NCBI GenBank assembly: GCA_964562615.1
Contig: CAZLUD010000002.1
Location: forward strand, 89,300-153,299
Source: an uncultured Candidatus Saccharibacteria bacterium
Lineage (GTDB): Bacteria; Patescibacteriota; Minisyncoccia; Phycocordibacterales; UBA12088
Reading direction: 5' to 3'
Length of the DNA: 64,000 nt
Positions 2,508 to 35,651 of this stretch are shown piece by piece. Position numbers and translations under genes: made by a program. The notes under the pieces were generated by a model. It had not been told where the DNA came from. It saw only the letters and a program-made list of their open reading frames with translations, and ran no database searches. Numbering within the stretch: the first letter of the stretch is position 1; every line of letters starts with the position of its first letter.

Positions 2508-3596
2508 CTAGTGTACTATGAACCCGCCTCCAACACACCGTGTATTGTCGTATAAGACGAGTGCCTGCCCCTCGGGGATGTGCGGTATTGGTGTTTCTAG
2601 GCTTACCGTGGCACTTTCTTTCGTTACAGAGGCAATAGTGCAAGGAAATAACGTTTGTCTGTGGCGCAATCTTGCCTGTAGCGTGTCTCCAACTGAAGGG
2701 GTCGCATTTATCCAATTTGCCTCGGTAATACTAATCTTATGATGATCATATTGTGGAGTAAGGTACCCAACTTCATCACTTACGACTAAAATATTTTTTT
2801 CTACATCTTTACTAACCACAAAGTATGGTTGTTGATTATGAGAATGAGTCTTCGCTGTAAACCCATGCCGTTGTCCAACAGTATAAAAAAGAGCTCCATC
2901 ATGTGTACCAATCTCCTCACCGTGTTGATTGACCACCACCCCCTGCGTAGCGGTGACAAAATGTGACAAAAATTCTTTAAGGTCTATATGTCCAACAAAA
3001 CATAATCCTTGGCTATCTTTACGTGCAGCACTAGGAAGATGTACTGCTGCAGCCATTTCGCGTACCGCATCTTTGGTCATGTGCCCAATTGGAAATATGA
3101 TGTGTGAGAGTTGTGCCTGGGTGAGTGTCCAAAGAAAGTATGTCTGATCCTTGTTTTCATCAACACTTCTATGCAACTCGTACTCGTCTGTGCTTGTATT
3201 CAGCCTTCTTTGTGCGTAGTGGCCAGTTGCTACCGCGTCAAATCCTTTTAGAAGTGCATGAGAAAGAAATGCGCCAAACTTCACTTCTTTGTTGCATAGC
3301 ACGTCTGGATTTGGTGTCTTTCCGGCACGGTACGCTGAAATCATATAGTCAACCACTTCCCTTTTGTACGTATCAGCAAGGTCAATAGTACTGCATGGTA
3401 CATCAAGGTGCGCAGCGACCTTGATGGCATCTTTTCTGTCCTGCTCTTGTGAGCATGGCAAAAAGTCAGGTTGCCAGACTTTTATAAAACCAGCATGTAC
3501 ATCACTCCCTGCTTCTTTGAGTAAATACGCAGAAAGCGAGGAGTCTACTCCCCCAGATAGTCCTACCATTATTTTGCTCGCACCTATTTTTGACAT
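2508..3596 (-). CDS. mnmA: tRNA-specific 2-thiouridylase MnmA
   Basis: PP-loop 'VGLSGGVDSS' plus the 'NPDVLCNKEVKFGAF' and 'KDQTYFLW' motifs. The length of 362 aa is typical. Confidence 0.9.
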   Translation of the reverse strand: MSKIGASKIMVGLSGGVDSSLSAYLLKEAGSDVHAGFIKVWQPDFLPCSQEQDRKDAIKVAAHLDVPCSTIDLADTYKREVVDYMISAYRAGKTPNPDVLCNKEVKFGAFLSHALLKGFDAVATGHYAQRRLNTSTDEYELHRSVDENKDQTYFLWTLTQAQLSHIIFPIGHMTKDAVREMAAAVHLPSAARKDSQGLCFVGHIDLKEFLSHFVTATQGVVVNQHGEEIGTHDGALFYTVGQRHGFTAKTHSHNQQPYFVVSKDVEKNILVVSDEVGYLTPQYDHHKISITEANWINATPSVGDTLQARLRHRQTLFPCTIASVTKESATVSLETPIPHIPEGQALVLYDNTRCVGGGFIVH

Positions 3597-3653
3597 GCCG
3601 TTTATTGTATTACATAATCGAAATCAGGAAAGACCCTGTCTAAGGAGGACACT

Positions 3654-16329: not shown

Positions 16330-19300
16330 ATGTATAGCATTTGGAGCTTTTTCACCCTACACAAGAGCTTTAGCTATCTTGTTCTTGTTACCCTTGTTGC
16401 GTTTGGTTCATACGCACTTGTCACTATCCCTAAGGAATCAGCTCCTGAGGTGCAGATTCCTATTGCCATTGTCTCTGTTGCCCTCCCTGGCGCGTCTGCT
16501 GTTGACATAGAAAAGCTCATAACCAACAAGGTAGAAACCGCACTCAATAATTCACTTGAAGATGTAAAAAAGATCACTTCATCATCGCAAGAAGGGTTTT
16601 CTTCTGTGGTCGTAGAGTTTCTCCCTTCTGCAAATATTGATGACTCCGTTCGTGATGTAAAAGATGAAATTGACAAGGTAAAGCCCGAGCTCCCAGAAGA
16701 CGCAACCGAGCCAATAGTAAGTGATGTTAATTTTGTAAATCAACCAATTATTACCTTTGCTATTGGTGCTGATCTCCCTGATGCTGAGCTTGTTGCACTC
16801 GCCGATGCAGTTGAAGATGAAATAAAAAAGGTTGAGGGAGTATCAGATGTAACCATTGGTGGATACAGAGCACGCGAGACACAAGTTATTGTAAGAAAGG
16901 AGGCGCTTGAAACCTACGGACTACGACTTGTTGATATCATTGGTGGCATTGCGCGTGCCAACAACACCTTTCCTGTCGGTAACATACTAGTAGACTCTAT
17001 TGCCTACAACGTACAGTTTGAAGGTGACCTCAATGACCCTGCGGAGGTAGCAAACATTGCTATATTTCTTCAAGGCGGGCAGCCAGTATATGTACGAGAC
17101 GTTGCTACGGTAGTAGATGGACTAGAAGAGGCTCGAAGCATCTCGCGCATCTCGCTTGATAGCGAGCCATCATCATCTGCCCTTTCCATTCAAGTATTTA
17201 AACGATCGGGAGGTGATATCACCAAAATAACAGACGAAGTTAAAAAGACCCTTGATACATTAAAGAGTGATGGTGGCATACTCAGCGATGCAACCACGCT
17301 TGTAGTATTTGATAATGGTAAAGAGTTAAAGAATGATCTAGTCTCACTTGGCAGCAGCGGTGCGCAGACGGTTGTTCTGGTTATGATTTCTCTTTTTATG
17401 GTGATTGGATGGCGCGAGGCGCTCATTGCTGGTTCTGCAATCCCTCTTTCATTCTTGCTAGCATTTATCGCACTTGAAGCATCTGGTAACACACTTAACT
17501 TTGTCTCCTTGTTTGCCCTTATCCTTGCGGTAGGCGTACTTGTTGACTCAGCTATTGTGATAATTGAAGGCATCAACCGAAACATGCGGTTGGATCCGCT
17601 TTTGTCTAAAAAGGACGCGTCACTTGCCGCCATTAAAGAATTTCATGGTCCTATCACCTCAGGAACACTCACTACCGTTGCGGTGTTTGTCCCTCTCTTC
17701 TTTATCTCAGGTGTAACCGGAGAATTTATCGCGAGTATTCCCTTCACGATTATCTTTGTCCTTATCGCCTCACTTATTATTGCGGTAGCAATTGTGCCGT
17801 TGTTTGCGTCATTATTTTTGACAAGACACGAACCAAGCAAGCTAGAGCTCATACAAGCTGAGTACCAAGAGAAAGTTGGGCGTTGGTACAAACAAAAGCT
17901 TGAATCAATATTAGGCAATCCAAAGCGCGAACGCATAGTCATATGGGGAATCTTGGCAATGTTTTTTGTTGCCATGACACTCCCCATACTAGGACTAGTT
18001 AAGGTAGAGTTTTTCCCTGCGGGAGACAGTGACTTTGTTGTTATTGAGCTTGAGCTCCTAGAAGGATCGCCTCTCTCACAAACAGATATAGAAATGCGAA
18101 AGCTTGAAGAAATACTATACGAGTACTCTATTATAGAGTCATTTGTGATGACTGCTGGCGAATCAAGCGCATTTAGCGGCTCACAATCAGTAAGTGCAGG
18201 GGCAAAATTTGCAAATGCATTTGTCACCTTGAAAAAGGATAGACCAGTTACCTCACAAGAATTTGCTGATGACCTCAGGGCTAAAACTGCTGCAATTGGT
18301 ACGGCTGAGGTGCGTATTAGCCAAGTTGAAAATGGTCCTCCAACCGGCACACCGGTGCTTATCAAATTTTTAGGTGACGACCTAGCTACCCTTGAAGAAA
18401 CCGTGCAAAAAGCTGCAACCATTCTTGAGAATACAGAGGGCTCTGCGGATGTAGTAACCAGCGCTAAAAACGATGGTACACAGTATGTGGTTGAGGTTGA
18501 TCCTGCTAAAGCTAGTGCGCTTGGACTTGATGCATCACTTATTTCTCAAACACTCCGTACTGCGGTAAGTGGTGTAAAGGCAACGTCTATTGTTTCAAAT
18601 GATGAGGATATTGATGTGGTGGTAAAGCTCAACCTCAATACTAACTACATGGATGCGCACGATACCGACCGCACCACAATAGACTCCCTAGGACAAATCT
18701 CAATTCAAACCCCAAATGGTCCAGTACTTCTTGCGTCAGTACTTGAAGTATCACTTGCAAAAAACAACACCGTAATTCAACACGAAAATCTTAAACGGGT
18801 AGTGAGCGTTGGATCACAGCTTGAGTCAGGCGCTAACCTTGTTGAGGTGGTAGCTGCCTTTGAAGAGAAAGTAAAAGAAGAGCTTGTACTGCCACAAGGA
18901 GTAACCATGGTAATTGGTGGTGAAAACGAAGAGAACAATCAAGCATTCACCGAAATGTTTTATGCGCTCATTGTAGGACTCGTGCTTATGCTTGCGATAC
19001 TCGTATTTGAATTTAGCTCATACCGACATGCGCTCTACGTTCTTTCAGTAACTCCACTTGCGCTTATTGGTATCATGATTGGTCTTATGGTGACGGGCAA
19101 GGCACTTTCCTTCCCTACGCTCATGGGCTTTATTGCACTTATGGGTATTGTGGTAAACAACTCAATCATATTGATTGACACCATGAATGCAATGAGAAAG
19201 ACAGACCCAGCAAAGCCAATACGTGATGTGGTACTTGAAGGCTCTGCGTCACGACTTCGCCCCATATTCCTTACCACCATCACCACAGTTATCGGTATGG

Positions 19301-19437
19301 TACCGCTTACCTACGCTGATGCATTATGGTCGCCACTTGCATGGGCAATTATATTCGGTCTTTCATTTTCTGTGGTACTCACTCTTCTTCTGGTACCTAT
19401 TCTCTACGGCAGAAAGCCCGGTGAGCTTGAGAGGTAA
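16330..19437 (+). CDS. RND family efflux permease (AcrB/HAE1-like)
   Basis: 1035 aa with a 12-TM architecture and two large periplasmic loops. Typical AcrB-type motifs are present in TM4 and TM10. Confidence 0.9.
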   Translation: MYSIWSFFTLHKSFSYLVLVTLVAFGSYALVTIPKESAPEVQIPIAIVSVALPGASAVDIEKLITNKVETALNNSLEDVKKITSSSQEGFSSVVVEFLPSANIDDSVRDVKDEIDKVKPELPEDATEPIVSDVNFVNQPIITFAIGADLPDAELVALADAVEDEIKKVEGVSDVTIGGYRARETQVIVRKEALETYGLRLVDIIGGIARANNTFPVGNILVDSIAYNVQFEGDLNDPAEVANIAIFLQGGQPVYVRDVATVVDGLEEARSISRISLDSEPSSSALSIQVFKRSGGDITKITDEVKKTLDTLKSDGGILSDATTLVVFDNGKELKNDLVSLGSSGAQTVVLVMISLFMVIGWREALIAGSAIPLSFLLAFIALEASGNTLNFVSLFALILAVGVLVDSAIVIIEGINRNMRLDPLLSKKDASLAAIKEFHGPITSGTLTTVAVFVPLFFISGVTGEFIASIPFTIIFVLIASLIIAVAIVPLFASLFLTRHEPSKLELIQAEYQEKVGRWYKQKLESILGNPKRERIVIWGILAMFFVAMTLPILGLVKVEFFPAGDSDFVVIELELLEGSPLSQTDIEMRKLEEILYEYSIIESFVMTAGESSAFSGSQSVSAGAKFANAFVTLKKDRPVTSQEFADDLRAKTAAIGTAEVRISQVENGPPTGTPVLIKFLGDDLATLEETVQKAATILENTEGSADVVTSAKNDGTQYVVEVDPAKASALGLDASLISQTLRTAVSGVKATSIVSNDEDIDVVVKLNLNTNYMDAHDTDRTTIDSLGQISIQTPNGPVLLASVLEVSLAKNNTVIQHENLKRVVSVGSQLESGANLVEVVAAFEEKVKEELVLPQGVTMVIGGENEENNQAFTEMFYALIVGLVLMLAILVFEFSSYRHALYVLSVTPLALIGIMIGLMVTGKALSFPTLMGFIALMGIVVNNSIILIDTMNAMRKTDPAKPIRDVVLEGSASRLRPIFLTTITTVIGMVPLTYADALWSPLAWAIIFGLSFSVVLTLLLVPILYGRKPGELER

Positions 19438-19465
19438 TAAATAGTAAAACTTTTTCACTAGTGTT

Positions 19466-19948
19466 TTACTTGTTTGAAGCAAATTTCTTCCACGCCATAG
19501 AAAGACGCAAGGTCTTTCCTCTCACATCAATATAGGTTTTTGAAAGCTCTTCAATGCGAACAGTATTAGCATTTTCTGAAAGAGCAGCGTACAGCTCGAG
19601 GTACACAACCATTTTGTTGCACCCTTGCATTGCCTTCTCAAGGCGCGCAAGCGCTTGTGCATGGTCATCAAAGCGCATGCCGTGTGCCTCGGCTATCATA
19701 AGAGGCGTATTGAGCGCACAGTTTCGCATACCCTCTGTATGAATAAAATGAGGGTCTGGTGTATCGCCAAGCACCTCCTTTTCTACCGCAATAGCGGAGG
19801 TCATAGCAATATGATATATGTCTAGGTCACGAAATGACTTTATATTTTTGCGCGGAATAAATTTTGCCTTTGCACCCCTCACAAACTGTGGTGTGTAGCC
19901 ACTTCTATTACTCTCTCCACCAGAGCTATTCCATTTATGTTCTGTCAT
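19466..19948 (-). CDS. Four-helix-bundle protein (23S rRNA IVS / Avd-like family)
   Basis: The segments 'FRDLDIYHIA', 'MRNCALNTPLMIAEAHGMR' and 'ALARLEKAMQGCNKMVVYLELYAAL' fit the family pattern, in which helix 1 reads F.DL.VW, helix 2 reads RRAA.SI..NIAEG.GR and helix 3 reads FL.IA.GS..ELE. The N-terminal ~35 aa are extra. Confidence 0.55.
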   Translation of the reverse strand: MTEHKWNSSGGESNRSGYTPQFVRGAKAKFIPRKNIKSFRDLDIYHIAMTSAIAVEKEVLGDTPDPHFIHTEGMRNCALNTPLMIAEAHGMRFDDHAQALARLEKAMQGCNKMVVYLELYAALSENANTVRIEELSKTYIDVRGKTLRLSMAWKKFASNK

Positions 19949-19980
19949 ACATTAGTAGTAGTATAGTATCCCTCGTTGTT

Positions 19981-21246
19981 TTATGCGTAGGTTGCCTTGT
20001 TATCTTTTGGAATGGTGGCAACACTACCATCGCGATAATGGATCCTTTTGGTCCGAGTCCTTTGTAGTTTTTTCACAATATGGAGTGGGTAAAACTCATA
20101 ATAGCTCTTTTCGTCAAACCACGCGCACTTGAAGTCTCTAAGGCGTAATCCCGTACGCCGTGATAGCGCAAGCGCGTACCAGGTAAGCTGTTCGACAGGG
20201 CGCTCATTTTCGGCATGTGGCTTGTAGTCAAGGATATGCACAACGCCATTTCTTACCTGCACCAAATCAATGTGCCCAGTCAGTATTGCCGGGAATGGTT
20301 CTACATTTTTATTACCTTTCATGCGTACGTCACCATCTTCAGTAACAGAAAACTTTAGCACTTTTTCAAAATGTATAACATCCTCTTTTTGAATATATAC
20401 GGGGACTTCTGTGGCAATCGTCACCGAATCATTAGCAATAAAAAAACGCTGTAGCTCTTCATGACGCTGTGTATTTTTAGGCACACCTTGAAGGACAAAA
20501 CGAGCAATATGATTTGCATAATTTTCCTTGCCCTTTATAACCACCTCGCTTAAATCAAACTTGCTTCTGACTTCACTCATGCGTGCTCCCTTTTCAAAGT
20601 ATTGGTGTGGGGTGTCGGTCGCAACCGTATCAAGATAATCAAGAAGTCTGGTAAAGGTTTTATTCTTATATTCCTCTAGGAGCAAAATAAGCTTAGGCCG
20701 GTGATACCTGAAGCGGTACAGCTGGCGGTGTGCCAAGGTGGTGGTTTCTACCATGTAAAACTTGACGCCATCTTTCTTCCCCTTCTGTTGCCACAGCGAG
20801 AGAATCTTTTTTGCGTACTTGCGCATACGCTCAAACCGACACAGCTCCTTACTCTGCTCATACCACGATGCTACGGTACGTGCAGCTGGCAACACTCCAT
20901 ATTTCTTTTCTATCACCGCAGGCACCTGCTCACACGCAAATCCAAGATTGACATAGCTAATCGCGTCAAGCACCGCTGGCCACGGATAGGGTGAGCCCTT
21001 CATGGCTCTTCCAGTAAAAGTTTTTCCGCAATCATACTCCCTGCAAATGAAAAGCTGTACCTGCTGATGCTTATTTTGCCGGACCCCTCTCTTTACAAAA
21101 TCCCGACTTTCGCAGTATGGGCAGTTATTTACCGAACGCTCTAGGAATGTGTCTTTAGAGAGTAGGATTGCATTGTCCCTTGTAGAGGGGTTCTCAGTGG
21201 GATTGATAGGATTGTTCTCTTTTTCTTCAGGGCTTTTCATAATCAC
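19981..21246 (-). CDS. InsA-like zinc-ribbon/HTH domain fused to a C-terminal RecB/Cas4-like PD-(D/E)xK nuclease
   Basis: N-terminus 'CPYCESRDFVKRGVRQNKHQQVQLFICREYDCGKTFTG' matches the IS1 InsA-type zinc ribbon (CPxC...V[KR]xG...Q.[YF].C..C..TF), followed by a putative HTH 'GVLPAARTVASW'. The C-terminus has 'GHIDLVQV...VVHILDYK' and 'QLTWYALAL', which correspond to RecB-family motifs II, III and QhxxY. Confidence 0.6.
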   Translation of the reverse strand: MIMKSPEEKENNPINPTENPSTRDNAILLSKDTFLERSVNNCPYCESRDFVKRGVRQNKHQQVQLFICREYDCGKTFTGRAMKGSPYPWPAVLDAISYVNLGFACEQVPAVIEKKYGVLPAARTVASWYEQSKELCRFERMRKYAKKILSLWQQKGKKDGVKFYMVETTTLAHRQLYRFRYHRPKLILLLEEYKNKTFTRLLDYLDTVATDTPHQYFEKGARMSEVRSKFDLSEVVIKGKENYANHIARFVLQGVPKNTQRHEELQRFFIANDSVTIATEVPVYIQKEDVIHFEKVLKFSVTEDGDVRMKGNKNVEPFPAILTGHIDLVQVRNGVVHILDYKPHAENERPVEQLTWYALALSRRTGLRLRDFKCAWFDEKSYYEFYPLHIVKKLQRTRTKRIHYRDGSVATIPKDNKATYA

Positions 21247-21577
21247 TAGCGATAGTCTTGATCAAGTGATGTGGTAGGGCGATAGTATATGAATAAGTAT
21301 ACTCATATCACGAATTCTTCATACCCCCATAGCACGACTATAGGCAATTTCGACATGCTTATACGCTAGTCGTGATATGGATTTGGTACGTTTTTTTGAC
21401 ATATGTCAATGTTTGTGCTTCTTCATTTTTCTTTAATGATATCCTTGAAAGTGCTCGTACTAGTATCTGCTTGCCTACTATTTTTGTATCAAACTGCATA
21501 GGATATACCCTTCCATGTGAGTTGAAGACGTATAAACCCCTCTGTACGTATCCATAGCTTCAGAAGCGCATTCCCAT

Positions 21578-24500
21578 CTATGGTTGAGGCGCCTCTGCTG
21601 GACCCTCATCAGCACCTTCTCCAGCAGACACTATCACGGTACGGGTGCTAGTTGCAGTATTGCCAGTTAGATCCCTCGCTACATAGGTTATGATATGCTC
21701 CATCACTTGTGTGGTATCAATTTGCACCGCGGTGACTTCTGTACCTAGGTAGTACGTGCGAAGGGTGGCGATACCACTATCATCAGTAGCAACAGCGCCA
21801 AGGTCGGCATAACTTTCCCCTACAGTAAGTAGTGCCGGGTTGTTTCCTTGCATGATTATGATCGGTGCAGTGGTATCTGCTGGCAATTCCTCGGGTGTAT
21901 CATCTTGCTCAGTACCCCCAGAATCATCACCAGTTGAGCCATTTTGTGACCCTTCTTCTCTAAGCAAAAGAAGTTCTTGAAGGTCGCTCTCAGTGATGCA
22001 GGTGTCCCCGATACAGAGGCGCTCTTTCACATACACCACATTTGCCGTAAATATATTTATGGTTAGTTCAGTGACTTGCGATAGTACTCTACGCACACTC
22101 TCAACAAACCATGACGGTTCACTACCAGACTGTAGCAGGTCAAAATTACTTTGATGTTCCTTCACTACTGCTGATAGCACCGCGGTTATTTCGGCATAGT
22201 GTACCGAGCGTGGCGAGCCATCGGTGTCACGCGCAACAAGCCTTGGCTCTATGGTTTCTATTTGCTCGGCGATAAAACCAAGTCGAGGCTCGTTAGTGCC
22301 ATTGTATTTAAATGATACTGGTTCAATACCTAATACTATTCTTTTTGCTTCTTCAGTTGTGAGTGTTTCAATATCGTGCTTAAACTGTGCGGATGATACC
22401 GTACAGTTAGAGGTGCCGGTGTTAACCACCATCTCTTTACTTGCAGACAGACACAATGCGGATGGCGTACCCGCTGCCGCGGTTAATCCATTTATTGCAA
22501 CTCCACCCTCAACTGAAAGTTTTTTCCATGGACTCGTCGTCCCGATGCCGACGTTGCCGCTCGAATTTATATTGATACCCCTTACGCTACCGTACCCGTC
22601 CCCACCTGTCGTAATTTGCAAACTATCAGTGGAGTGTAGGTATGAGATAATTCCCGCATATTGGGACGCTCCATCCGAGAAGAAAATGTTCGAGCGGGTC
22701 GCACCGGCAATGGTAACGCCATTGCTACCCGAAGCGGTTCCAATTGTGAGGTTATCAGTGTCTGCGTATGACCATGGACTCGTCGTCCCAATGCCGACGT
22801 TGCCCGTGTTTCTACTTATAAACATATCATCAGTATTTAAATCAGCCCCGCCATAATTTCTTCTGAAAACTAATCCATCAGCAGTAGGGTCATATCCAAG
22901 TCCCACATATGGGACATAACCCACACCATCAAACGAGATATATTCTCCGCTTGCATCATAACCAAATCCCAATTTATGTATTGGCCCCGTCGTCCCAATG
23001 CCGACGTTGCCGCTCGTTGGGTTTAATAATGTATTGTTTCCTTGACTATTTATTTTCAATGGTTTAGACGCCCAGCTTTGTATGTAGTTATAGCTCGCAT
23101 CACTACCAAACGAAAGATTATCAACAGTCTGATTTCTTAACATAAATCCATAGCTTGCATTTGTTCCGTCAGTGGTATTAGCAGCTTGATTTATTGTAAG
23201 CAGGTTTCCTGGCGCCGTCGTCCCAATGCCGACGTTGCCGCCGTTTGGCTGTAATGTGAGTGGTCTGTTCGTCCAACTTACCCCATCTGAAAAAGACTGG
23301 ATGTAGGAGTAATCTCCTGAAGCAGATGCGCCAAGCGCAAGTTCTGAATCTAATGAAGCTGAAAGTATAGAAAGACCAAAGCTGCCTTCTGCTGGAGTAC
23401 CATCTTTAAAAATTTGCAGCTTCTCCTGCGGCGCACTCGTCCCGATGCCGACGTTGCCGTCTGTTTTTACATAGAGACCCGCATTACCAAACTGATAATT
23501 CGTACCATCAAAGTATAGATAATTGCTTGAACTATCACCAAAGTAGTAAGCGCCAGTATTAGATGAACGACGTGCAACAATGTCACCAGCAACGCCTGAC
23601 CCTCCACTGTTGGCACCTACCCGCAGGTAACCGGTAACAAGAGCATTTCCGCTCACCTCAAGCTTCTGATTAGGTGCCGTCGTCCCGATGCCGACGTTGC
23701 CGTTCGTATCTATTCTGACCTTTTCCGTTCCCGTCGTAACAAACGCCAATTCTGTCTGAGAAGAATTGTTGTGAATACCATAAATGCCGGAAAATTGATT
23801 TGCCCCGGCGTCCATATTAAACGTCAAACCCAAATGTGCGTAAGTCCCGTTACCTGCCGCTAATCCCGTGTCCAACGCTATCCCTTTATTCTTTGACCCA
23901 GTCGGAGTAAACGCAGCGTTCTGATAATCGCTCGTAACATACAATTTGGAAGCCGGACTCGTCGTCCCCACCCCCACATTCCCCGTCGCTCTGTACACAT
24001 TGCCACCAGAGAGGGTCCAGTTCCCCACCGTGGCACCAGCAACAAGCGCACCATTCCAGTAGAGGGAGGAGGCATTGTTGTATAGGCGGTTGGTGGTAGC
24101 AAGAGGAGTGGATGAGGCAAGGAAGAGTGAACCAGTCACTGAGGCATCTCCAGAAACTGAGAGCGTACTCCAGGGGGTGGTGGTACCAATACCAAGATTG
24201 CTTCCGGTGAAAGAGAAGAGAGGGGTGGTTGCGATTTGTTTTGAAGCGTTAGTGAAGAGGACTGAAGAGGGAGATTGGGTAGCGAGGGTGGTGGTACCAC
24301 TAAGGACAGAGAGTGTGGAGGTGCCGGTAGCGGTGTATCCCACAATGGTGGGGTTGTTGAGAGTGACAGACGAGAGAGAACCACCGGTGATGGTAGGGTT
24401 TGTGATGACGGCAGAGGGTATCTGCACTCCCACAGAGAGGTTGTCTATCTTCTGGGTGAGTCCCCAGACGGGAGTCGAGGGTGGCTGGTATGAGGAGTAG

Positions 24501-25531
24501 GTGCCATAGCCGGTGAAGGTAGTGGCGGTTTGTGTGGGGAGAGTGTTTAGTTTTGTGGTGAGGAGAGCAAGAGATGATTCGAGGAAGGAGATGCGACTCA
24601 AGAGGTCGGTGTTGTTTGCTTCTATGGTGATGTACTCTGGGGTCACCACTCGTTCAACCACTCGTGTTGGTGCTTGTGGAGGGAGAGGTGTGGGAGCAGA
24701 GCTGGTCTTCTTTTGTGGTACCTGTCCTGCGCTTGTTGAAGGGGTGGGAGGAGTGGTCTCTTTGATGCGCTCTTCGACAGGGACAAAGGTGGTTGGGGTG
24801 GGAGTTGGTGTGACGGGAGTCTCCTCTTCCTTGCAGGTGTTGAGTCCTAGAGTGTTGTTCACAAAGCAGAAGAAAGAGACTGCCGTCTCTGACAGAGAGG
24901 CAGCTCCTAGCTGGGTGGTGTTTTCTTGTGCGAGGAGGTAGATGAGTTCTCCGGTGGTGCTGTCTATTGCCACGCCAAGGGCTTGTGGGATGTTGGTGAG
25001 GGTGGTATCCACTCCTTTGGTGAAGGATTCACCTACCTTGGTATAGGTCTCTTTTGGAGAGAAAGAGAAGAGTGATGTGAAGAAACTGTCTATGTGAGTT
25101 GCTATGGTGTCCTTCACTGAAGGAGGGGTGTCAGAGAGGTATGAAGATGCGCCTGCTACCCATGGAGCAAGGACAAACATGACAATGCAAAAGAGGGTGG
25201 TGCGCATGGTGTGCAAAGAGACGTATGAGGCATCTCGGTGTTCGATTAAGAAATCATCAATCGACATAGTATCAATGAGCTGCTCCTCCGCCACAGAAGG
25301 AAAGCCTGCCTCAACCGCGCCAAGTAGTTTTACCTCACTAAACAAATGCGTAGGAATGAGCTTTCCGGTATGGTCCTTTTGAATAAATCCTGCATCAATA
25401 AGTTTAGTGACTAGTGAAAACGCCGCATTTTTAGATGCATATCCCATAAGGTCTGCTATCTCTCGGTAGCTAGGCATCCGTTTATGGGTGTAGTAAAAAT
25501 CTAGAATCTTTTTTCCTTCTCCTTGTGTCAT
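21578..25531 (-). CDS. Giant membrane/surface protein of 1317 aa. An N-terminal LexA-like DNA-binding domain and cleavage-site linker is followed by a signal-anchor/TM helix, a Pro/Thr-rich stalk, about eight tail-fibre-like 'GNVGIGTT(S/A)P' repeats, a Peptidase-S74 intramolecular-chaperone domain and a DUF5011-like Ig domain.
   Basis: aa 8-108 align with E. coli LexA 5-125. 'MPSYREIADLMGYASKNAAFSLVTKLIDAGFI' matches '[33 protein letters not shown]', 'LLGAVEAGFPSVAEEQ' matches 'LVGRVAAGEPLLAQQH', and 'VSLHTM' matches 'VSGMSM'. The LexA catalytic domain is absent. aa 109-130 'MRTTLFCIVMFVLAPWVAGASS' is a signal-peptide-like segment (nt 25142-25207). The S74-like segment near nt 22148-22393 reads 'FKHDIETLTTEEAKRIVLGIEPVSFKYNGT...RLGFIAEQIETIEPRLV...RSVHYAEITAVLSAVVKEHQ'. 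The Ig-like domain lies near nt 21632-21868. An alternative start at M109 (ATG 25207) would give a conventional secreted protein. Neither start has a clear SD. Confidence 0.7.
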   Translation of the reverse strand: MTQGEGKKILDFYYTHKRMPSYREIADLMGYASKNAAFSLVTKLIDAGFIQKDHTGKLIPTHLFSEVKLLGAVEAGFPSVAEEQLIDTMSIDDFLIEHRDASYVSLHTMRTTLFCIVMFVLAPWVAGASSYLSDTPPSVKDTIATHIDSFFTSLFSFSPKETYTKVGESFTKGVDTTLTNIPQALGVAIDSTTGELIYLLAQENTTQLGAASLSETAVSFFCFVNNTLGLNTCKEEETPVTPTPTPTTFVPVEERIKETTPPTPSTSAGQVPQKKTSSAPTPLPPQAPTRVVERVVTPEYITIEANNTDLLSRISFLESSLALLTTKLNTLPTQTATTFTGYGTYSSYQPPSTPVWGLTQKIDNLSVGVQIPSAVITNPTITGGSLSSVTLNNPTIVGYTATGTSTLSVLSGTTTLATQSPSSVLFTNASKQIATTPLFSFTGSNLGIGTTTPWSTLSVSGDASVTGSLFLASSTPLATTNRLYNNASSLYWNGALVAGATVGNWTLSGGNVYRATGNVGVGTTSPASKLYVTSDYQNAAFTPTGSKNKGIALDTGLAAGNGTYAHLGLTFNMDAGANQFSGIYGIHNNSSQTELAFVTTGTEKVRIDTNGNVGIGTTAPNQKLEVSGNALVTGYLRVGANSGGSGVAGDIVARRSSNTGAYYFGDSSSNYLYFDGTNYQFGNAGLYVKTDGNVGIGTSAPQEKLQIFKDGTPAEGSFGLSILSASLDSELALGASASGDYSYIQSFSDGVSWTNRPLTLQPNGGNVGIGTTAPGNLLTINQAANTTDGTNASYGFMLRNQTVDNLSFGSDASYNYIQSWASKPLKINSQGNNTLLNPTSGNVGIGTTGPIHKLGFGYDASGEYISFDGVGYVPYVGLGYDPTADGLVFRRNYGGADLNTDDMFISRNTGNVGIGTTSPWSYADTDNLTIGTASGSNGVTIAGATRSNIFFSDGASQYAGIISYLHSTDSLQITTGGDGYGSVRGININSSGNVGIGTTSPWKKLSVEGGVAINGLTAAAGTPSALCLSASKEMVVNTGTSNCTVSSAQFKHDIETLTTEEAKRIVLGIEPVSFKYNGTNEPRLGFIAEQIETIEPRLVARDTDGSPRSVHYAEITAVLSAVVKEHQSNFDLLQSGSEPSWFVESVRRVLSQVTELTINIFTANVVYVKERLCIGDTCITESDLQELLLLREEGSQNGSTGDDSGGTEQDDTPEELPADTTAPIIIMQGNNPALLTVGESYADLGAVATDDSGIATLRTYYLGTEVTAVQIDTTQVMEHIITYVARDLTGNTATSTRTVIVSAGEGADEGPAEAPQP
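22534..24205 (-). repeat. Intragenic tandem repeats of ~225-245 bp (8 units) encoding the GNVGIGTT(S/A)P motif
   Basis: The near-identical 24-nt core CGTCGTCCCAATGCCGACGTTGCC recurs at 22534, 22780, 22988, 23216, 23436 and 23678. Diverged copies occur at 23956 and 24182. Confidence 0.85.
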
Positions 25532-25544
25532 GGGCTTAGTATAC

Positions 25545-25558
25545 TGAACGAACGTTCA
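25545..25558. promoter_or_regulatory. SOS-box-like palindrome (GAAC-N4-GTTC, Cheo-box type) in the divergent promoter of the LexA-domain gene
   Basis: TGAACGAACGTTCA lies 14 nt upstream of the ATG of the LexA-like ORF, immediately next to the self-complementary AGTATACT (a TATACT -10-like hexamer on both strands). Confidence 0.5.
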
Positions 25559-25589
25559 CTATACAACTGTGGATAAGTAGCAGCCCATT

Positions 25590-25844
25590 TTGCTGAGTAT
25601 TCCACTCGATTCCCTTGCTCAATATGAGAGACGTGCCACACTAGAGGTATTACTCAATAAGCTATGTAATCGTATGGGAGAACATTATGTATGTACGGGC
25701 GGTTGTGAAGGAGTATCACCAAAGCAAACAACATGCGGAGCACCCGAGTGTCCAAAGCACGACACCCCCCTTACCGCTTGTTCATGTGTTGATGGTATGC
25801 ACCTAGAGGCATACGAAAAAGATGAAAAGGATGGGGCAATGTAA
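25590..25844 (+). CDS. Small Cys-rich hypothetical protein (7 Cys in 84 aa)
   Basis: Contains 'CTGGCEGVSPKQTTCGAPECPKHDTPLTACSC'. It is divergent from the giant gene. Confidence 0.4.
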   Translation: MLSIPLDSLAQYERRATLEVLLNKLCNRMGEHYVCTGGCEGVSPKQTTCGAPECPKHDTPLTACSCVDGMHLEAYEKDEKDGAM

Positions 25845-25864
25845 CATTTGGTATACTCTTATAT

Positions 25865-26431
25865 ATGATACTGACTACGAAGCAACAGCTCTTACTTGGA
25901 TTATTAGTGATTATTGGGATATTGGCAATTGTATTCTACTTTCCAGGTCCAAAGACGTGGCTCGAAAAAAAGCTTAACAAAAAACCTGATAGTGCGATCA
26001 CTACCTTTGAAGAATGCGCAAAGTACTATCCGGTTCTTGAGTCATATCCAGAGAGATGCTCTACCAAAAGCGGCGCATCTTTTACAAGAGACATTGGTAA
26101 TGAACTAGAAAAAGCAGATCTCATCAAAAGTACTACCCCTCGCCCAGGAGACACTATAATGAATCCACTTGTCATAGAGGGAGAGGCACGTGGGTATTGG
26201 TTTTTTGAAGCGACTGCGCCTGTTGAGTTGTACAACAATAGTGGAGTACAAATAGCGAGCGGATACATTGAAGCGCAAGGCGAATGGATGACTGAAGACT
26301 TTGTGCCGTATACCGGAACACTCGACTTTCCACCTGCAGCCTCTGGTAGTGGCTACCTCCTTATCAAAAAGGCAAATGCTTCTGGACTACCAGAGCATGA
26401 TGACTCACTTAGCATTCCGGTAGTCTTTTAA
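25865..26431 (+). CDS. Membrane-anchored protein with a Gmad2-type Ig-like domain
   Basis: N-terminal TM helix LLLGLLVIIGILAIVFYF. The segment 'PLVIEGEARGYWFFEATAPVELYNNSGVQIASGYIEAQGEWMTEDFVPYTGTLDF' resembles the GerMN/Gmad2 Ig-like fold. Confidence 0.5.
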   Translation: MILTTKQQLLLGLLVIIGILAIVFYFPGPKTWLEKKLNKKPDSAITTFEECAKYYPVLESYPERCSTKSGASFTRDIGNELEKADLIKSTTPRPGDTIMNPLVIEGEARGYWFFEATAPVELYNNSGVQIASGYIEAQGEWMTEDFVPYTGTLDFPPAASGSGYLLIKKANASGLPEHDDSLSIPVVF

Positions 26432-26433
26432 CC

Positions 26434-27087
26434 ATGAGCAAAAAGACACTACACAACGCTATCGCTATTGTTTCTTCACTTGTATTTGTGTACCTGATGT
26501 GGTCAGGCTCAATCACCCTTACCGAGGACACCACAAAGGAACCGCTCCATGACCAAGGTGCCGTAGTTGCAGAATACGCAACCACACCCGATGAGGCAGA
26601 AGAAGACACTACTTTTGCCCCCACTACGGTGAGTGAGGCCTCATTTCCAAAAATCACTACCGTCATGCGCGTAATAGATGGCGATACGTTTGTAGTATCT
26701 ATGAATGACAAGCCGGTAACTGTACGACTCTTAGGAATAGACACCCCTGAGACAGTACATCCAAATAAACCAGTTGAATGCTTTGGGAGAGAGGCATCAG
26801 AATATCTTACCTACCTCATTAATCAGCACGAGCTAGTGTTGGTTCTTGATCCTACGCAAGGCGCCTATGATAAATACGGCAGACTACTTGCGTATGCGTA
26901 TCTTCCTGATGGACGAAGCGTAAATGAGATACTACTACGAGATGGTTTTGCGTATGAGTACCTGTACCAAACCCCCTACGAGTTACATGATAGGTACGTT
27001 GCTATAGAACAAAAGGCAATTGATGCAAAACGAGGCTTGTGGGCAGAAGGTGTGTGTCAACAAGAAGAATCGTTAGAGGTACAATAA
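26434..27087 (+). CDS. Membrane-anchored thermonuclease (staphylococcal nuclease homologue)
   Basis: TM anchor followed by the SNase core 'VIDGDTFVVSMNDKPVTVRLLGIDTPE' and 'YGRLLAYAY...NEILLRDGFA'. Confidence 0.85.
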   Translation: MSKKTLHNAIAIVSSLVFVYLMWSGSITLTEDTTKEPLHDQGAVVAEYATTPDEAEEDTTFAPTTVSEASFPKITTVMRVIDGDTFVVSMNDKPVTVRLLGIDTPETVHPNKPVECFGREASEYLTYLINQHELVLVLDPTQGAYDKYGRLLAYAYLPDGRSVNEILLRDGFAYEYLYQTPYELHDRYVAIEQKAIDAKRGLWAEGVCQQEESLEVQ

Positions 27088-32741: not shown

Positions 32742-35651
32742 TTACTGAGAGAATCGTGCTTTATACTCCTCTACTAGATCGCAATAATCACATGTTTTAG
32801 GATCGCACGGCGCGGTGAGATACGCCCCAGTGAGTAATTCGTTCACCACGGTGTGTATCTGTTCCTTAAGCGTTGTTACCGCATCATCTGGTATAACAAA
32901 TGCCTCCGTGTGTATTTCTCCTTTTTTATCTGGCTCAACAAATTGCAGTATGCCCTTTTTCATGTGGCCAACACCACCTGCTTCTAGTAGCAGTTTGTAA
33001 AATACAAGTTGTCGATAATAGCCACCGTCACTGTTTGCTGCTACTCCCTCAATCTCATTTCTTGATTTAGGCTCTCCCGTTTTGTAGTCGATTACTACTA
33101 GACCATCTGGTTCAGTGCGCAACAAATCTAATTCGCCGGTAAGCACTATATCAGTATCACCTACTTGTATAGGGGTCTTTATACGGCGCTTTGGCTCTCC
33201 TTTCATTACCAACTCATCAGACATTGTGGCAAACAGTGTCGAGAGTGCCTCAATCCCTCGCGTTCGATAATGTTCAAATTCATGAGCAGCAATAGGCTCC
33301 TTTTCTAGAGCTTCTTCAAAAAGGGCAATCAACTCGTGCTGTTCTTTTTTGCCCAACAGGACAAATTTTTCAAGCGCTTTATCAATCGCAGTACCATACA
33401 TCAAATGATGCTTTTTTGCTGAAGGCACGCGTAGGAATGTTGAAAATATAAATCGCCATGGATTGTCCATGTATTGATTAAGACCCGTCACTGAGAATCC
33501 GTCTTTTGTGAGGTGCTCACGCATCAACTCACTCAGGGTGGTAGTTATTTCAGACGATGAAAAATGCCCCGATGTTTCCTCGCGCTCTTCTGGTGGCGCT
33601 ACCACTCTATGTAATAGCGCACTATCTATGTCATCAATAAACCTACTTGGTTCTGCCTCTTTTCCATCAGGAAGCTCTTGTGCATAGGTGAGAGTAAGCT
33701 CCTGCTTTGCTCTTGTCATTGCCACATACAAGAGACGACGCTCATCCTCAATAGCGAGGTGTTCGGTATCTTCTTTATACAATGGCATGATGAAAAATTC
33801 TTTGTCTGCCCTTCCTCGCCATTCTCTATCAACAAGATGAGTAATATATACTTTTTCAAACTCAAGTCCTTTTGCCTTGTGCGCAGTCATAAGGCGAACA
33901 GAGCCTTCTCTAATTCTGTATGATCTATGGATGTCTATGTGGTGGCGTTCCATAACCACAAGCCGCTCCATGAGCGTCTCGATAGTGGCGCCAGGGCTTT
34001 CATAGACTAGTGCTTGTGCAAATGAAAAGAGGCCAAGGTACGATTCGTATACATCTTCACGTGAAAGGGCGTACGAAAGAAATCCCGTCTCTCGTGCCAC
34101 TATTTCAATAAAAGTGAGAAGTGGCGTGACTCGTGCAATAGCGGTATGTGAAAGGAGCATCTTTTTTATTGATGCCACATCGTCGTGGGTGTCCATAACT
34201 GAGAGCACTGATCGTCTATCCTTGACCCGTTCACGCATCACACTAAAAAAGGTGGTAAGTGATATCGCCATCCACGGACTTGCAAGTGCTCGTACCATAC
34301 TCTCTTCATCTCCATAACAGACTCCCCGAAAGTACGCGAGCAATAGTCCAATAGCCGGGACAGAAAATATGCTGCGCTCAGACTCTATGACGTGCGGTAT
34401 ACCTCGCTGTGAAAGCGCGTGAGAAATAGCTAGCGCATTGTTATTTTTTCTGTATAAAATCGCAATTTCATGAGGATGTGTACCGTCTGTTATATCTTTT
34501 GCCACGCGCGCGGCAACCACAGATAATTCATCCATCACACTCTCGCAGGCAAGTAGGGTGGGGACTACGCCACTTTTCTCTTTAGCGGCAATGAGTGATG
34601 GTTGGGTATCAAATCCACCATGTGCAATAAGTGAGTGTGATGAATCTAATATCGATTGTGTTGATCGGTAATTATGCGTGAGGGTGATAACTCGAACCGT
34701 AGGGGCAAATGCTCGTATACCATGAAAGTTTTCCATAGACGCTCCTTGAAAGCGATATATCGCTTGCTTTTCGTCTCCCACCACAAACAAGTTTGGCTCG
34801 TCATGAAAGCCGGTAATAAGCTCTAGTAATCTATTCTGAGCTCTGTTTGTATCTTGATGTTCATCAACTAATACATACAATGACTCCTCTGAAAGAATAA
34901 GGAGAAGCTCCTCCTCCTTTTCACACGCCTCTATTACCGAGAGCACCATGTCCTCATAGTCATGTCTTTTCATTTTTGCGAGTGACTCTTGGTACGCACT
35001 GTATGCGGTAACAACCTCAAAACTTCGAGCGAGTTTTTGTTGATACGTAAGATGCTCTGCCTTCATCTTCCCTTTTGTCTTCCCTCTTGTTGAAAGTAAA
35101 TCATCCCTCGAATAAAAAGTATCGCGAGCTTTTTCAAGTCGCGTCTGAAGCTCCTCTGGCGAAACCTTTTCTTGTTTTGCTTTTTTAACCGCTTCCTTTA
35201 CTTCATACATGTAGTAAAAGGGATCGTTAGACGTACGAAGATGGACAAATGATTGCGTACGAAAAATATCCTCCCATACGATAGCTCGCTCGAGGTCGCT
35301 AAGTGCTTTGCTCCCCGCCATATGAGAAAAGTAGGAAGGAAATCGCTCGATAATGGAATTCGCATACCCATGAAAAGTATGTATCGCAACTTTGTAGGCA
35401 TCCTCGCCAATGATACTTCGTAGCCTAGAGCGCATGGCCGCTACTCCAGACTCAGTAAACGTAAGACACAATATGCCGCTCGCGGGTGTGTCTGTTTGCT
35501 TGAGAATATTTGCAATCCGTAATGCAAGCACCTGTGTTTTGCCTGTCCCGGGGCCTGCTACAAGCATTACCGGACCCTCAATAGTATCTACCGCCTCTTT
35601 TTGGGCGGTATTTAGCGCGGTATATGCCCTCAGGAAGGCGTCATGCTTCAT
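32742..35651 (-). CDS. UvrD/PcrA-family helicase fused to a C-terminal Cas4/RecB-like PD-(D/E)xK nuclease with a Cys cluster
   Basis: Walker A 'VAGPGTGKTQVL'. The helicase motifs span about 650 aa. The C-terminus has 'GELDLLRTEPDGLVVIDYKTG', 'YYRQLVFY' and 'CDPKTCDYCDL', an Fe-S-type 3-Cys cluster. Confidence 0.85.
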   Translation of the reverse strand: MKHDAFLRAYTALNTAQKEAVDTIEGPVMLVAGPGTGKTQVLALRIANILKQTDTPASGILCLTFTESGVAAMRSRLRSIIGEDAYKVAIHTFHGYANSIIERFPSYFSHMAGSKALSDLERAIVWEDIFRTQSFVHLRTSNDPFYYMYEVKEAVKKAKQEKVSPEELQTRLEKARDTFYSRDDLLSTRGKTKGKMKAEHLTYQQKLARSFEVVTAYSAYQESLAKMKRHDYEDMVLSVIEACEKEEELLLILSEESLYVLVDEHQDTNRAQNRLLELITGFHDEPNLFVVGDEKQAIYRFQGASMENFHGIRAFAPTVRVITLTHNYRSTQSILDSSHSLIAHGGFDTQPSLIAAKEKSGVVPTLLACESVMDELSVVAARVAKDITDGTHPHEIAILYRKNNNALAISHALSQRGIPHVIESERSIFSVPAIGLLLAYFRGVCYGDEESMVRALASPWMAISLTTFFSVMRERVKDRRSVLSVMDTHDDVASIKKMLLSHTAIARVTPLLTFIEIVARETGFLSYALSREDVYESYLGLFSFAQALVYESPGATIETLMERLVVMERHHIDIHRSYRIREGSVRLMTAHKAKGLEFEKVYITHLVDREWRGRADKEFFIMPLYKEDTEHLAIEDERRLLYVAMTRAKQELTLTYAQELPDGKEAEPSRFIDDIDSALLHRVVAPPEEREETSGHFSSSEITTTLSELMREHLTKDGFSVTGLNQYMDNPWRFIFSTFLRVPSAKKHHLMYGTAIDKALEKFVLLGKKEQHELIALFEEALEKEPIAAHEFEHYRTRGIEALSTLFATMSDELVMKGEPKRRIKTPIQVGDTDIVLTGELDLLRTEPDGLVVIDYKTGEPKSRNEIEGVAANSDGGYYRQLVFYKLLLEAGGVGHMKKGILQFVEPDKKGEIHTEAFVIPDDAVTTLKEQIHTVVNELLTGAYLTAPCDPKTCDYCDLVEEYKARFSQ

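Follow-up and report, generated by a model that had tools for sequence, protein, structure and literature searches.

The 64,000-nucleotide (nt) stretch analysed here, hereafter the window, covers positions 89,300 to 153,299 of contig CAZLUD010000002.1 from an uncultured Candidatus Saccharibacteria bacterium (assembly GCA_964562615.1). On its minus strand it carries three consecutive genes, encoding a giant fibre protein (FIB), a zinc-ribbon protein with a RecB/Cas4-like nuclease domain (NUC) and a small basic protein (the partner, also called AVD-like), and it is NUC together with its partner that forms the subject of this analysis. The features of the locus, in window coordinates, are the following, where aa stands for amino acids, HTH for helix-turn-helix and CPR for Candidate Phyla Radiation; A1, A2 and A3 are alignments.

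21578-25531, minus strand: FIB, the giant fibre gene, 1317 aa, upstream of NUC, with a Peptidase_S74 chaperone at aa 1046-1099 and an immunoglobulin (Ig)-like domain at aa 1227-1301
22526-24202, minus strand: array of eight copies of a 33-nt repeat, seven of them with the 21-nt word GGCAACGTCGGCATCGGGACG; candidate recognition or recombination site
19981-21246, minus strand: NUC gene, 421 aa, GTG start, alternative ATG start at 21240, stop codon at 19981-19983
21013-21123, minus strand: four-cysteine (C4) zinc ribbon of NUC, aa 42-78 (C42, C45, C68, C73)
20851-20991, minus strand: three-helix, HTH-like DNA-binding module of NUC, aa 86-132, the HTH being assigned from the structure model
20431-20832, minus strand: helical/beta N-terminal extension of the nuclease domain, aa 139-272, delimited from alignments A2 and A3 and the model
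20077-20430, minus strand: RecB/Cas4-type PD-(D/E)XK core, aa 273-390 (D273/E280, D327, D340-x-K342, Q353xxxY357)
19984-20076, minus strand: basic C-terminal tail of NUC, aa 391-421, specific to the CPR fibre-linked subfamily and present in alignment A1
19466-19948, minus strand: partner gene (AVD-like), lying 32 nt after NUC and encoding a basic helical protein of 160 aa

An earlier, sequence-only reading had described the 19981-21246 open reading frame (ORF) as an InsA-like zinc ribbon and HTH fused to a RecB/Cas4-like nuclease, and both the ORF and all the zinc-ribbon and nuclease motifs it quoted are present. A public protein (P0001) is identical to NUC and begins at the ATG at 21240, which gives it a length of 419 aa. 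The zinc ribbon comprises the motifs C42-P-Y-C45, Q64-L-F-I-C68 and C73-G-K-T-F77, and its four cysteines are invariant in alignment A2 and at least 90% conserved in A3. Using hidden Markov model (HMM) searches, the NCBIfam model IS1_IS1595_Zn (NF050000) was found to match aa 42-79 of the window NUC with 27.1 bits (E=4.6e-6), just below the cut-off of 28, and to match 98 of 104 relatives (E≤0.01). The IS1 transposase model was matched by 45 of these relatives, Pfam Zn_ribbon_InsA by nine, and HTH_23 or HTH_38 by a few. Judged from these profiles, homology of the zinc ribbon to the InsA/IS1595 type is very likely, with the window score itself under the formal cut-off.

The nuclease half contains the motifs G-H-I-D327-L-V, I-L-D340-Y-K342 and Q353-L-T-W-Y357, in the order seen in RecB/Cas4-type nucleases. 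Pfam PDDEXK_1 (PF12705) matches aa 291-366 with 24.1 bits, above its cut-off of 22 (E=4e-5), and is found in 100 of the 104 relatives. The sequence-only reading had let its claim fail if catalytic D, E or K residues were missing after alignment, and these are retained: K342 is invariant in both A2 and A3, D273, D327 and Q353 are invariant in A2, and for E280, D340 and Y357 conservation stays at 90% or more down to about 30% identity. Within the N-terminal extension (aa 139-272), which gave no family match, H182 and K185 are invariant and R222, S224, N242, R261 and H262 are conserved. The basic C-terminal tail is missing from divergent relatives of 330-395 aa, and TIGR00372 is matched weakly by just eight of the 104 relatives. 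In agreement with the earlier observation that InsB is absent, a DDE domain was found by HMM searches neither in the window NUC nor in any of the 104 relatives.

A first structure model of NUC, based on 18 sequences, was poor (predicted local distance difference test score, pLDDT, of 60). The AlphaFold2 model based on 104 sequences reached a pLDDT of 89.6 and a predicted template modelling score (pTM) of 0.86, showing a beta zinc ribbon (aa 50-78), three helices (aa 89-131) and an alpha/beta nuclease core; the helices of the HTH-like module (aa 89-100, 108-116 and 122-131) have pLDDT values greater than 90. The top Foldseek matches are the nuclease domains of RecB and AddA, Cas4 (4ic1, 4r5q), MGME1 and viral Cas4/RecB-like exonucleases. 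All their E-values are weak (best 2.4e-3), and therefore NUC has no close solved relative; a sequence search of solved structures gave nothing useful for either NUC or the partner. The earlier proposal that NUC descends from a mobile element and is directed to its DNA by sequence is supported.

To describe the genomic context, 81 non-redundant loci were surveyed by crude ORF calls and all-against-all BLAST, together with Pfam-annotated contigs. A partner homologue follows NUC on the same strand in 68 of the 75 loci with enough downstream DNA, its product ranging from 140 to 190 aa with an isoelectric point of about 9.2-9.5. NUC and the partner are a co-evolving two-gene cassette (Mantel r=0.77, reached by 0 of 500 permutations). 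Among the 767 clusters of the partner family there is one that carries the NCBI name 'four helix bundle protein'. The sequence-only reading had placed an Avd-like four-helix-bundle gene and a giant fibre gene on either side of NUC. Both neighbours were confirmed, and the label 'Avd-like' for the helical protein proved weak: the window partner scores 13.9 bits against PF05635 (cut-off 33.8), eight of 11 partner members match this family below threshold (best E=0.0015), and hhalign against the canonical PF05635 members of the same loci is not significant (1.7% probability). PADLOC gave no match for the partner. A diversity-generating retroelement (DGR) was considered and rejected, as there is no reverse transcriptase among the Pfam-annotated neighbours (window ~9.9-19.4 kb and 25.9-37.9 kb) and no template/variable repeat pair in a repeat scan of 19300-26000.

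The cassette is linked to fibre genes well beyond the window. The co-oriented order of giant fibre gene (with GNVGIGTT repeats and Peptidase_S74), NUC and partner recurs in about 80 loci with unrelated flanks, which bears out the earlier view of the three genes as one unit. NUC is preceded by a co-oriented fibre-like ORF in at least 54 of 71 loci, the cassette is nearly always in or just after a giant tail-fibre-like gene, and in some loci a second fibre paralogue follows downstream. In the case of two sister NUCs, the fibre-NUC-partner module lies between MraY and FtsW in one (L082, a JGI contig of 381 kb), whereas in the other (L083, Kaiserbacteria PFBG01000012) MraY and FtsW are direct neighbours and the module lies a few kb off, upstream of ScpB. 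The module therefore occupies different points of one ScpB-MraY-FtsW-MurG neighbourhood, which implies that the fibre gene travels with the cassette.

These data bear on the possibility that NUC is a transposase of a new insertion-sequence type, in which an InsA-like DNA-binding module is combined with a PD-(D/E)XK domain in place of DDE. Such an enzyme would account for the homology of the N-terminal module to the N-termini of IS1, IS1595, IS6 and IS256 transposases, for the name 'transposase-like protein' given to relatives by some sources and for the varying genomic position of the module. We nevertheless regard it as extremely unlikely, considering that the neighbours are conserved and not random insertion sites, that NUC is essentially single-copy (one genome with two copies among the 80 loci listed), that there is no second transposase ORF, and that in 51 of 55 loci, the window included, the cassette is not bounded by terminal repeats, inverted or direct, beyond what shuffling predicts. 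The terminal-repeat search suggested in the sequence-only reading thus lent nothing to an IS1-like mobility.

The four exceptions (L022, L046, L016 and L070) carry direct and/or inverted repeats of 21-40 nt on both sides of NUC and partner, similar to hairpins of the repetitive extragenic palindromic (REP) type. Y1 transposases are found near some of these four, a Y1 (IS200-like) transposase of 220-250 aa occurs near the module in 16 loci, and the k-mer GGCCGAAGCC, in keeping with repeats of the REP type, precedes NUC in 12 loci. In the window itself a 30-nt inverted repeat, 70% complementary, brackets the three-gene module, with one arm at 19452-19481 (partner 3' end) and the other at 25391-25420 (in the FIB 5' region); it has no counterpart at other loci and is probably due to chance.

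In part of the related loci the cassette fills the gap of a split intein, a position that the sequence-only reading missed. Using HMMs built from the halves, we located intein N- and C-halves that bracket NUC and partner in 17 loci, where the fibre gene is interrupted. The N-half, upstream of the cassette, opens with Cys1 (CVTGDTLL) and extends to block B (TxxHPYLV), and the C-half begins the ORF after the partner (...VWDIEVEGTHNF...AHN, followed by T) and is fused to the remainder of the fibre with its S74 domain. In most of the 17 loci the upstream fibre ORF closes with the N-half and NUC starts separately, whereas in L012, L013, L035, L036, L045 and L055 the fibre ORF runs through the N-half into NUC without a stop, as one ORF. 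Hint/intein matches in the long homologues P0108 and P0120 had suggested inteins inside NUC; this was rejected, as alignment shows them to be fibre C-termini and an intein N-half fused upstream.

When the exteins are spliced virtually they align unbroken to uninterrupted fibres, the L013 junction matching the L083 fibre with 52% over 117 aa and the L012 junction matching the window FIB, whose repeats align across the splice junction. In loci of the L012/L013 type the intein starts 12 codons past a 21-nt word. A neighbour-joining (NJ) tree places intein-embedded and free-standing NUCs interleaved in at least three clades, and the clade of the window NUC is wholly free-standing. Given that the gap between intein halves is the classical position of a homing endonuclease, its occupation by NUC points to homing-type mobility.

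Another kind of intein was met in the same fibres. Where a homing endonuclease would be expected, two contiguous fibre inteins (L085:216-1274 and L041:1025-2305) hold an NYN domain, a PIN-like nuclease (PF01936, E=8e-28 and 1e-16, nested in PF14890), and free-standing NYN genes of about 170 aa adjoin NUC in many loci. An NYN-type intein endonuclease appears to be undescribed so far.

The fibre repeat has a property of its own. The 21-nt word, present in seven copies at 22538-23983 on the minus strand of the window, encodes GNVGIGT, within the fibre repeat GN(V/I)GIGT. In 54 CPR loci with 33-62% G+C it is identical in 187 of 270 occurrences, and each of its synonymous sites is fixed at 86-94%, compared with a background of 16-36%. 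The exact word is also found in frame in long ORFs of more than 120 viral contigs with 29-64% G+C. Fixation of synonymous sites across such a wide range of G+C implies selection at the nucleic-acid level, and the word may be a general recombination signal for swapping fibre modules. As a site specific to NUC it is weakened, the word being common in viral contigs without NUC.

Traces of the word are found at the borders of the cassette. In 12 of 71 loci, compared with 0.03 in shuffles, the left edge of the cassette carries a degenerate copy (≤5 mismatches), within the 5' part of NUC; most of these edge words precede the first Cys codon by 39-47 nt, and all three reading frames are represented. 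A fibre-like G[ND]xGxG motif occurs in six of 68 NUC N-terminal tails (0.06 expected), and word-like copies are present downstream of the partner in five loci. The remnants indicate that the borders of the cassette formed in fibre-repeat DNA.

The 33-nt repeats also explain a feature of the assemblies. Contigs break off 1-3 kb before NUC in about 65 of the 80 related loci. They do so because of the near-identical repeats that the fibre gene contains; neither an rRNA gene nor a repeat element is the cause. Two of the window copies (22526-22804) are 97% identical, and Logan contig L001, from the same organism, stops exactly at 22558. It follows that short-read assemblies of these genomes systematically cut their fibre genes short.

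In addition to its GNVGIGTT repeats, FIB holds a LexA-like winged HTH (aa 17-103) and a transmembrane (TM) segment. The start of the gene (25223-25483) encodes this winged HTH and the sequence LLGAVEAGFP, which resembles a LexA/UmuD cleavage site, then a signal/TM-like segment and the extracellular fibre. The L083 fibre (L083:3677-3950) opens instead with a MerR/excisionase-like HTH and a TM segment, and a cytoplasmic DNA-binding head on surface fibres seems to be recurrent.

The reading we favour, although our confidence in it is evenly balanced, is that NUC and its partner are a homing-type, sequence-directed PD-(D/E)XK endonuclease cassette targeting CPR fibre genes, free-standing in the window, with FIB as candidate target and host gene. 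It builds on the architecture of NUC, the conservation of its catalytic residues, the cassette and its synteny, the split-intein position in relatives and the word remnants at the edges, from which we infer DNA cleavage, the identity of the target, homing and a role for the partner. The variable genomic position, the patchy distribution and the occurrence of divergent relatives as solitary genes in unrelated contexts argue for it as well. The C4 zinc ribbon and HTH would read a DNA site, as the same module reads the ends in IS1 InsA/IS1595 transposases, and the PD-(D/E)XK domain would cut nearby, using a metal ion held by D327 and D340 together with K342. The target would probably lie in or beside the conserved 21-nt word. 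A break in a cassette-free fibre allele or paralogue would then be repaired from a cassette-bearing copy, and repair would copy NUC and partner, plus the flanking intein halves and fibre segments where present. The partner protein may act as a cofactor or as a restrainer of the nuclease, and the cassette of the window is in the free-standing state, directly after a complete fibre gene.

Considering the family as a whole, a word-indexed search with NUC returned 1,202 clusters (at least 1,200 in the family). The best 120 of these share 53-66% identity over near full length, and every named one among them comes from Patescibacteria (CPR). An HMM scan of 1.84 billion representatives gave 2,332 matches, 293 of them with E<1e-30. 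Relatives were confirmed in 250 of 185,579 species genomes; 80 of the 250 loci were inspected, most of them contigs of metagenome-assembled genomes (MAGs) with crude ORF calls, and in these 80 the relatives are labelled Patescibacteria except for unclassified 'bacterium' MAGs and one short, probably mis-binned contig. A phage origin was rejected, as the viral contigs of IMG/VR contain no NUC relatives. Our literature search found no paper on the NUC family, CPR fibre inteins or the GNVGIGT motif.

The divergent members (330-395 aa) retain the four cysteines, H182/K185, D273, E280, D327, D340, K342 and Q353. They are solitary and stand in unrelated contexts: an ispE-spoVG-glmU-prs cluster, a Replic_Relax contig and a contig with archaeal-type Spt5. 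On the last of these (L087; GCA_053532335.1, JAIYPE010000029.1) a 335-aa member at 2591-3598 shares the contig with the gene for Spt5 (NGN+KOW), with neither a fibre gene nor a recognisable partner there. Given the archaeal type of this Spt5, the NUC family may extend to archaea, perhaps DPANN-like ones.

Several observations weigh against the homing reading. No cleavage, target or empty-site allele has been demonstrated. In the window intein halves are lacking, none of the reading frames of the leader shows a trace of an intein, the cassette edge carries no fibre-word remnant, and neither a second fibre gene nor fibre sequence comes after the partner gene, so that the homing role rests on relatives. 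Since PemK, NYN and Bro-N-like genes are also found in the intein gap, this position alone is no proof of endonuclease function. The 21-nt word is equally conserved in viral contigs without NUC, which means that its conservation does not depend on NUC. Finally, all NUC copies examined are intact, and for the same genome pairs with a linked GAPDH gene the median NUC identity is 0.67, compared with 0.64 for GAPDH (r=0.70). Such values resemble those of a housekeeping gene under constraint, with descent largely vertical within lineages, and differ from the cycle of gain, decay and loss typical of selfish endonucleases. The distribution of NUC is patchy, yet its copies are all intact and their divergence tracks GAPDH; either populations undergo homing continually, or the cassette has taken on a host function.

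Such a host function is the essence of a second explanation, in which NUC is a domesticated nuclease serving the fibre gene: with its AVD-like partner it would make programmed breaks at or near the word, drive recombination or conversion between fibre modules, paralogues or incoming DNA, and in this way vary the fibre used for host attachment. The housekeeping-level conservation with divergence that tracks the host, the intactness of every copy, and the constant link to the fibre gene and to a co-evolving partner all argue for it. So do the second fibre paralogues downstream at some loci and the word itself, present in at least seven copies per fibre gene, fixed at synonymous sites and of a length that would be near the minimum for homologous recombination. 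The same conservation of the word in phage contigs that lack NUC argues against it, as do the lack of another fibre cassette in the window that could serve as donor and the count of 250 in 185,579 species genomes, by which most CPR genomes appear to be without the cassette; no evidence of rearranged fibre variants was obtained. We consider this explanation unlikely, and it is the main alternative to homing.

Domestication of this kind would have a parallel in the intein-derived HO endonuclease, which drives mating-type switching in yeast. In a bolder form, which we hold to be distinctly unlikely, NUC and its partner would be a retroelement-free diversification engine of CPR host-attachment fibres, arisen by an HO-like domestication of an intein-borne endonuclease. 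The zinc-ribbon/HTH would read the 21-nt word of every fibre module, NUC would cut nearby, and repair would shuffle or convert modules.

The GAPDH-like conservation, together with the RecB/Cas4-type fold and motifs, would also fit an ordinary chromosomal repair or recombination nuclease, a housekeeping member of the RecB/Cas4 family that lies near fibre genes by accident. That is highly improbable: the distribution is patchy, the chromosomal position varies whereas the fibre and partner context is fixed, relatives are located within split inteins, and a transposase-type reader is no feature of repair nucleases. Moreover, the window encodes a 969-aa UvrD-helicase/PD-(D/E)XK (AddA-like) protein at 32745-35651, which means that the genome already holds a conventional repair nuclease of the RecB family.

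The surroundings of the module suggest a further alternative. Small selfish genes are often found wedged into it, encoding PemK/MazF-like, HicB, MNT nucleotidyltransferase, NYN and Bro-N/RhuM-like proteins and the canonical PF05635 four-helix-bundle protein (intervening-sequence protein, IVP); loci that serve as such landing pads include L005, L008, L014, L016, L024, L030, L036, L045, L055, L062, L078 and L083. NUC could accordingly be imagined as the effector of a toxin-antitoxin-like or defence module, restrained by its helical partner and kept by addiction or phage protection. In its favour are the tight linkage of a nuclease gene to the gene of a small basic protein, the gathering of PemK, HicB, MNT, NYN and Bro-N-like genes at the locus, and a partial PADLOC match of 44 residues to Cas4-like nucleases of candidate defence systems (E=5.5e-5). 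This match is weak and concerns just the Cas4-like domain, no defence or toxin family is significant beyond the generic nuclease domain, a zinc-ribbon/HTH reader is atypical of toxins, the strict fibre and split-intein context is left unexplained, and NUC is conserved far above the level of polymorphic toxins. We therefore think this alternative very unlikely, and the defence effector considered in the sequence-only reading found no evidence.

Outside the module the window is an ordinary CPR chromosome, with a resistance-nodulation-division (RND) pump, YchF, HisRS, TruB and BacA in addition to the AddA-like helicase-nuclease. Just upstream of the module, at 25865-27084, one gene encodes a Gmad2 Ig-like protein and another a homologue of staphylococcal nuclease (SNase, E=1e-24). 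One further feature separates NUC from FIB:

21247-21577, minus strand: intergenic leader upstream of NUC, with hairpins (fold z = -2.5) and one weak promoter-like site at 21311-21284

If the homing reading is true, NUC would represent an undescribed, strongly conserved family of homing endonucleases, combining an InsA-type reader with a RecB/Cas4-type cutter in about 1,200 clusters with an obligatory partner, and fractured genes would extend from phage DNA enzymes to the surface-fibre genes of ultra-small symbiotic bacteria. It would also provide a source of naturally split inteins and of a modular, probably long-site nuclease as possible tools. A testable link is offered between a nuclease and the evolution of fibres that episymbionts presumably use for host attachment. 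The 21-nt word, fixed in DNA across CPR bacteria and viruses, may in its own right point to a signal for fibre-module recombination that is general.

The closest known systems are the fractured genes, in which a host gene is split by a split intein with an endonuclease gene in between and whose endonucleases also occur as stand-alone inserts (Dassa et al. 2009, PMC2677866). The layout of N-extein with intein N-half, nuclease gene, and intein C-half with C-extein is shared by 17 of the related loci and is not found in the window, where FIB is complete (S74, Ig-like domain and stop codon). Like NUC, the fractured-gene nucleases also occur free-standing without an intein, and the two families are alike in their restriction-endonuclease-like fold. 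Those published so far are Vsr-like or GIY-YIG, the Vsr-like/EDxHD family including I-Bth0305I (PMC3239194), whereas NUC is of RecB/Cas4 type, with D..D-x-K and QxxxY motifs and an InsA-like zinc ribbon and HTH. In contrast to the published cases, the N-half and the nuclease often form one ORF in the NUC loci, and there is a conserved AVD-like second gene. The host gene is a cellular CPR surface-fibre gene instead of a phage DNA-metabolism enzyme, with NUC not found in viral contigs, and the conservation of NUC is much higher than usual for homing endonucleases. A precedent for homing by a PD-(D/E)XK fold is I-Ssp6803I, from a group I intron in a cyanobacterial tRNA (cited in PMC2677866); this enzyme is small, tetrameric and intron-encoded, has no zinc ribbon/HTH and appears to lack any sequence relation to NUC.

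IS1 InsA and the N-termini of IS1595, IS6 and IS256 transposases have, like NUC, a C4 zinc ribbon followed by an HTH that reads specific DNA, a homology at the HMM level, whereas the InsB/DDE domain, the frameshift partner, the terminal inverted repeats and the multi-copy state of IS1 are lacking in NUC. The core fold and the motif order are common to NUC, Cas4, the nuclease domains of RecB, AddA and AddB, and MGME1 (QhxxY). NUC differs from Cas4 in having no four-Cys Fe-S cluster, C374 alone being conserved in its C-terminal part, and no cas genes (Cas1/Cas2 included) were present in the Pfam-scanned neighbours or the synteny survey; nor does NUC have a helicase, and a sequence-reading N-terminal module is fused to its nuclease. 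The partner resembles Avd of DGRs and the 23S rRNA intervening-sequence proteins (PF05635) in being small, basic and helical, in weakly sharing FxDLxVYxxA ... IAEAHG-type motifs of PF05635 and in adjoining a variable surface-protein gene, but it accompanies a nuclease where Avd accompanies a reverse transcriptase.

Homing endonucleases of the I-TevI type tether a GIY-YIG catalytic domain to a separate zinc-finger/HTH DNA-binding module. NUC is modular in the same way, with a different catalytic fold and the reverse domain order, and through such tethering tens of base pairs may separate the site it binds from the site it cuts, which would fit the spacing of about 36-47 nt between the fibre word and the junction of cassette or intein. 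The arrangement of NUC and its partner has precedent, whereas the nuclease family, the obligatory partner, the class of host gene and the degree of conservation are new.

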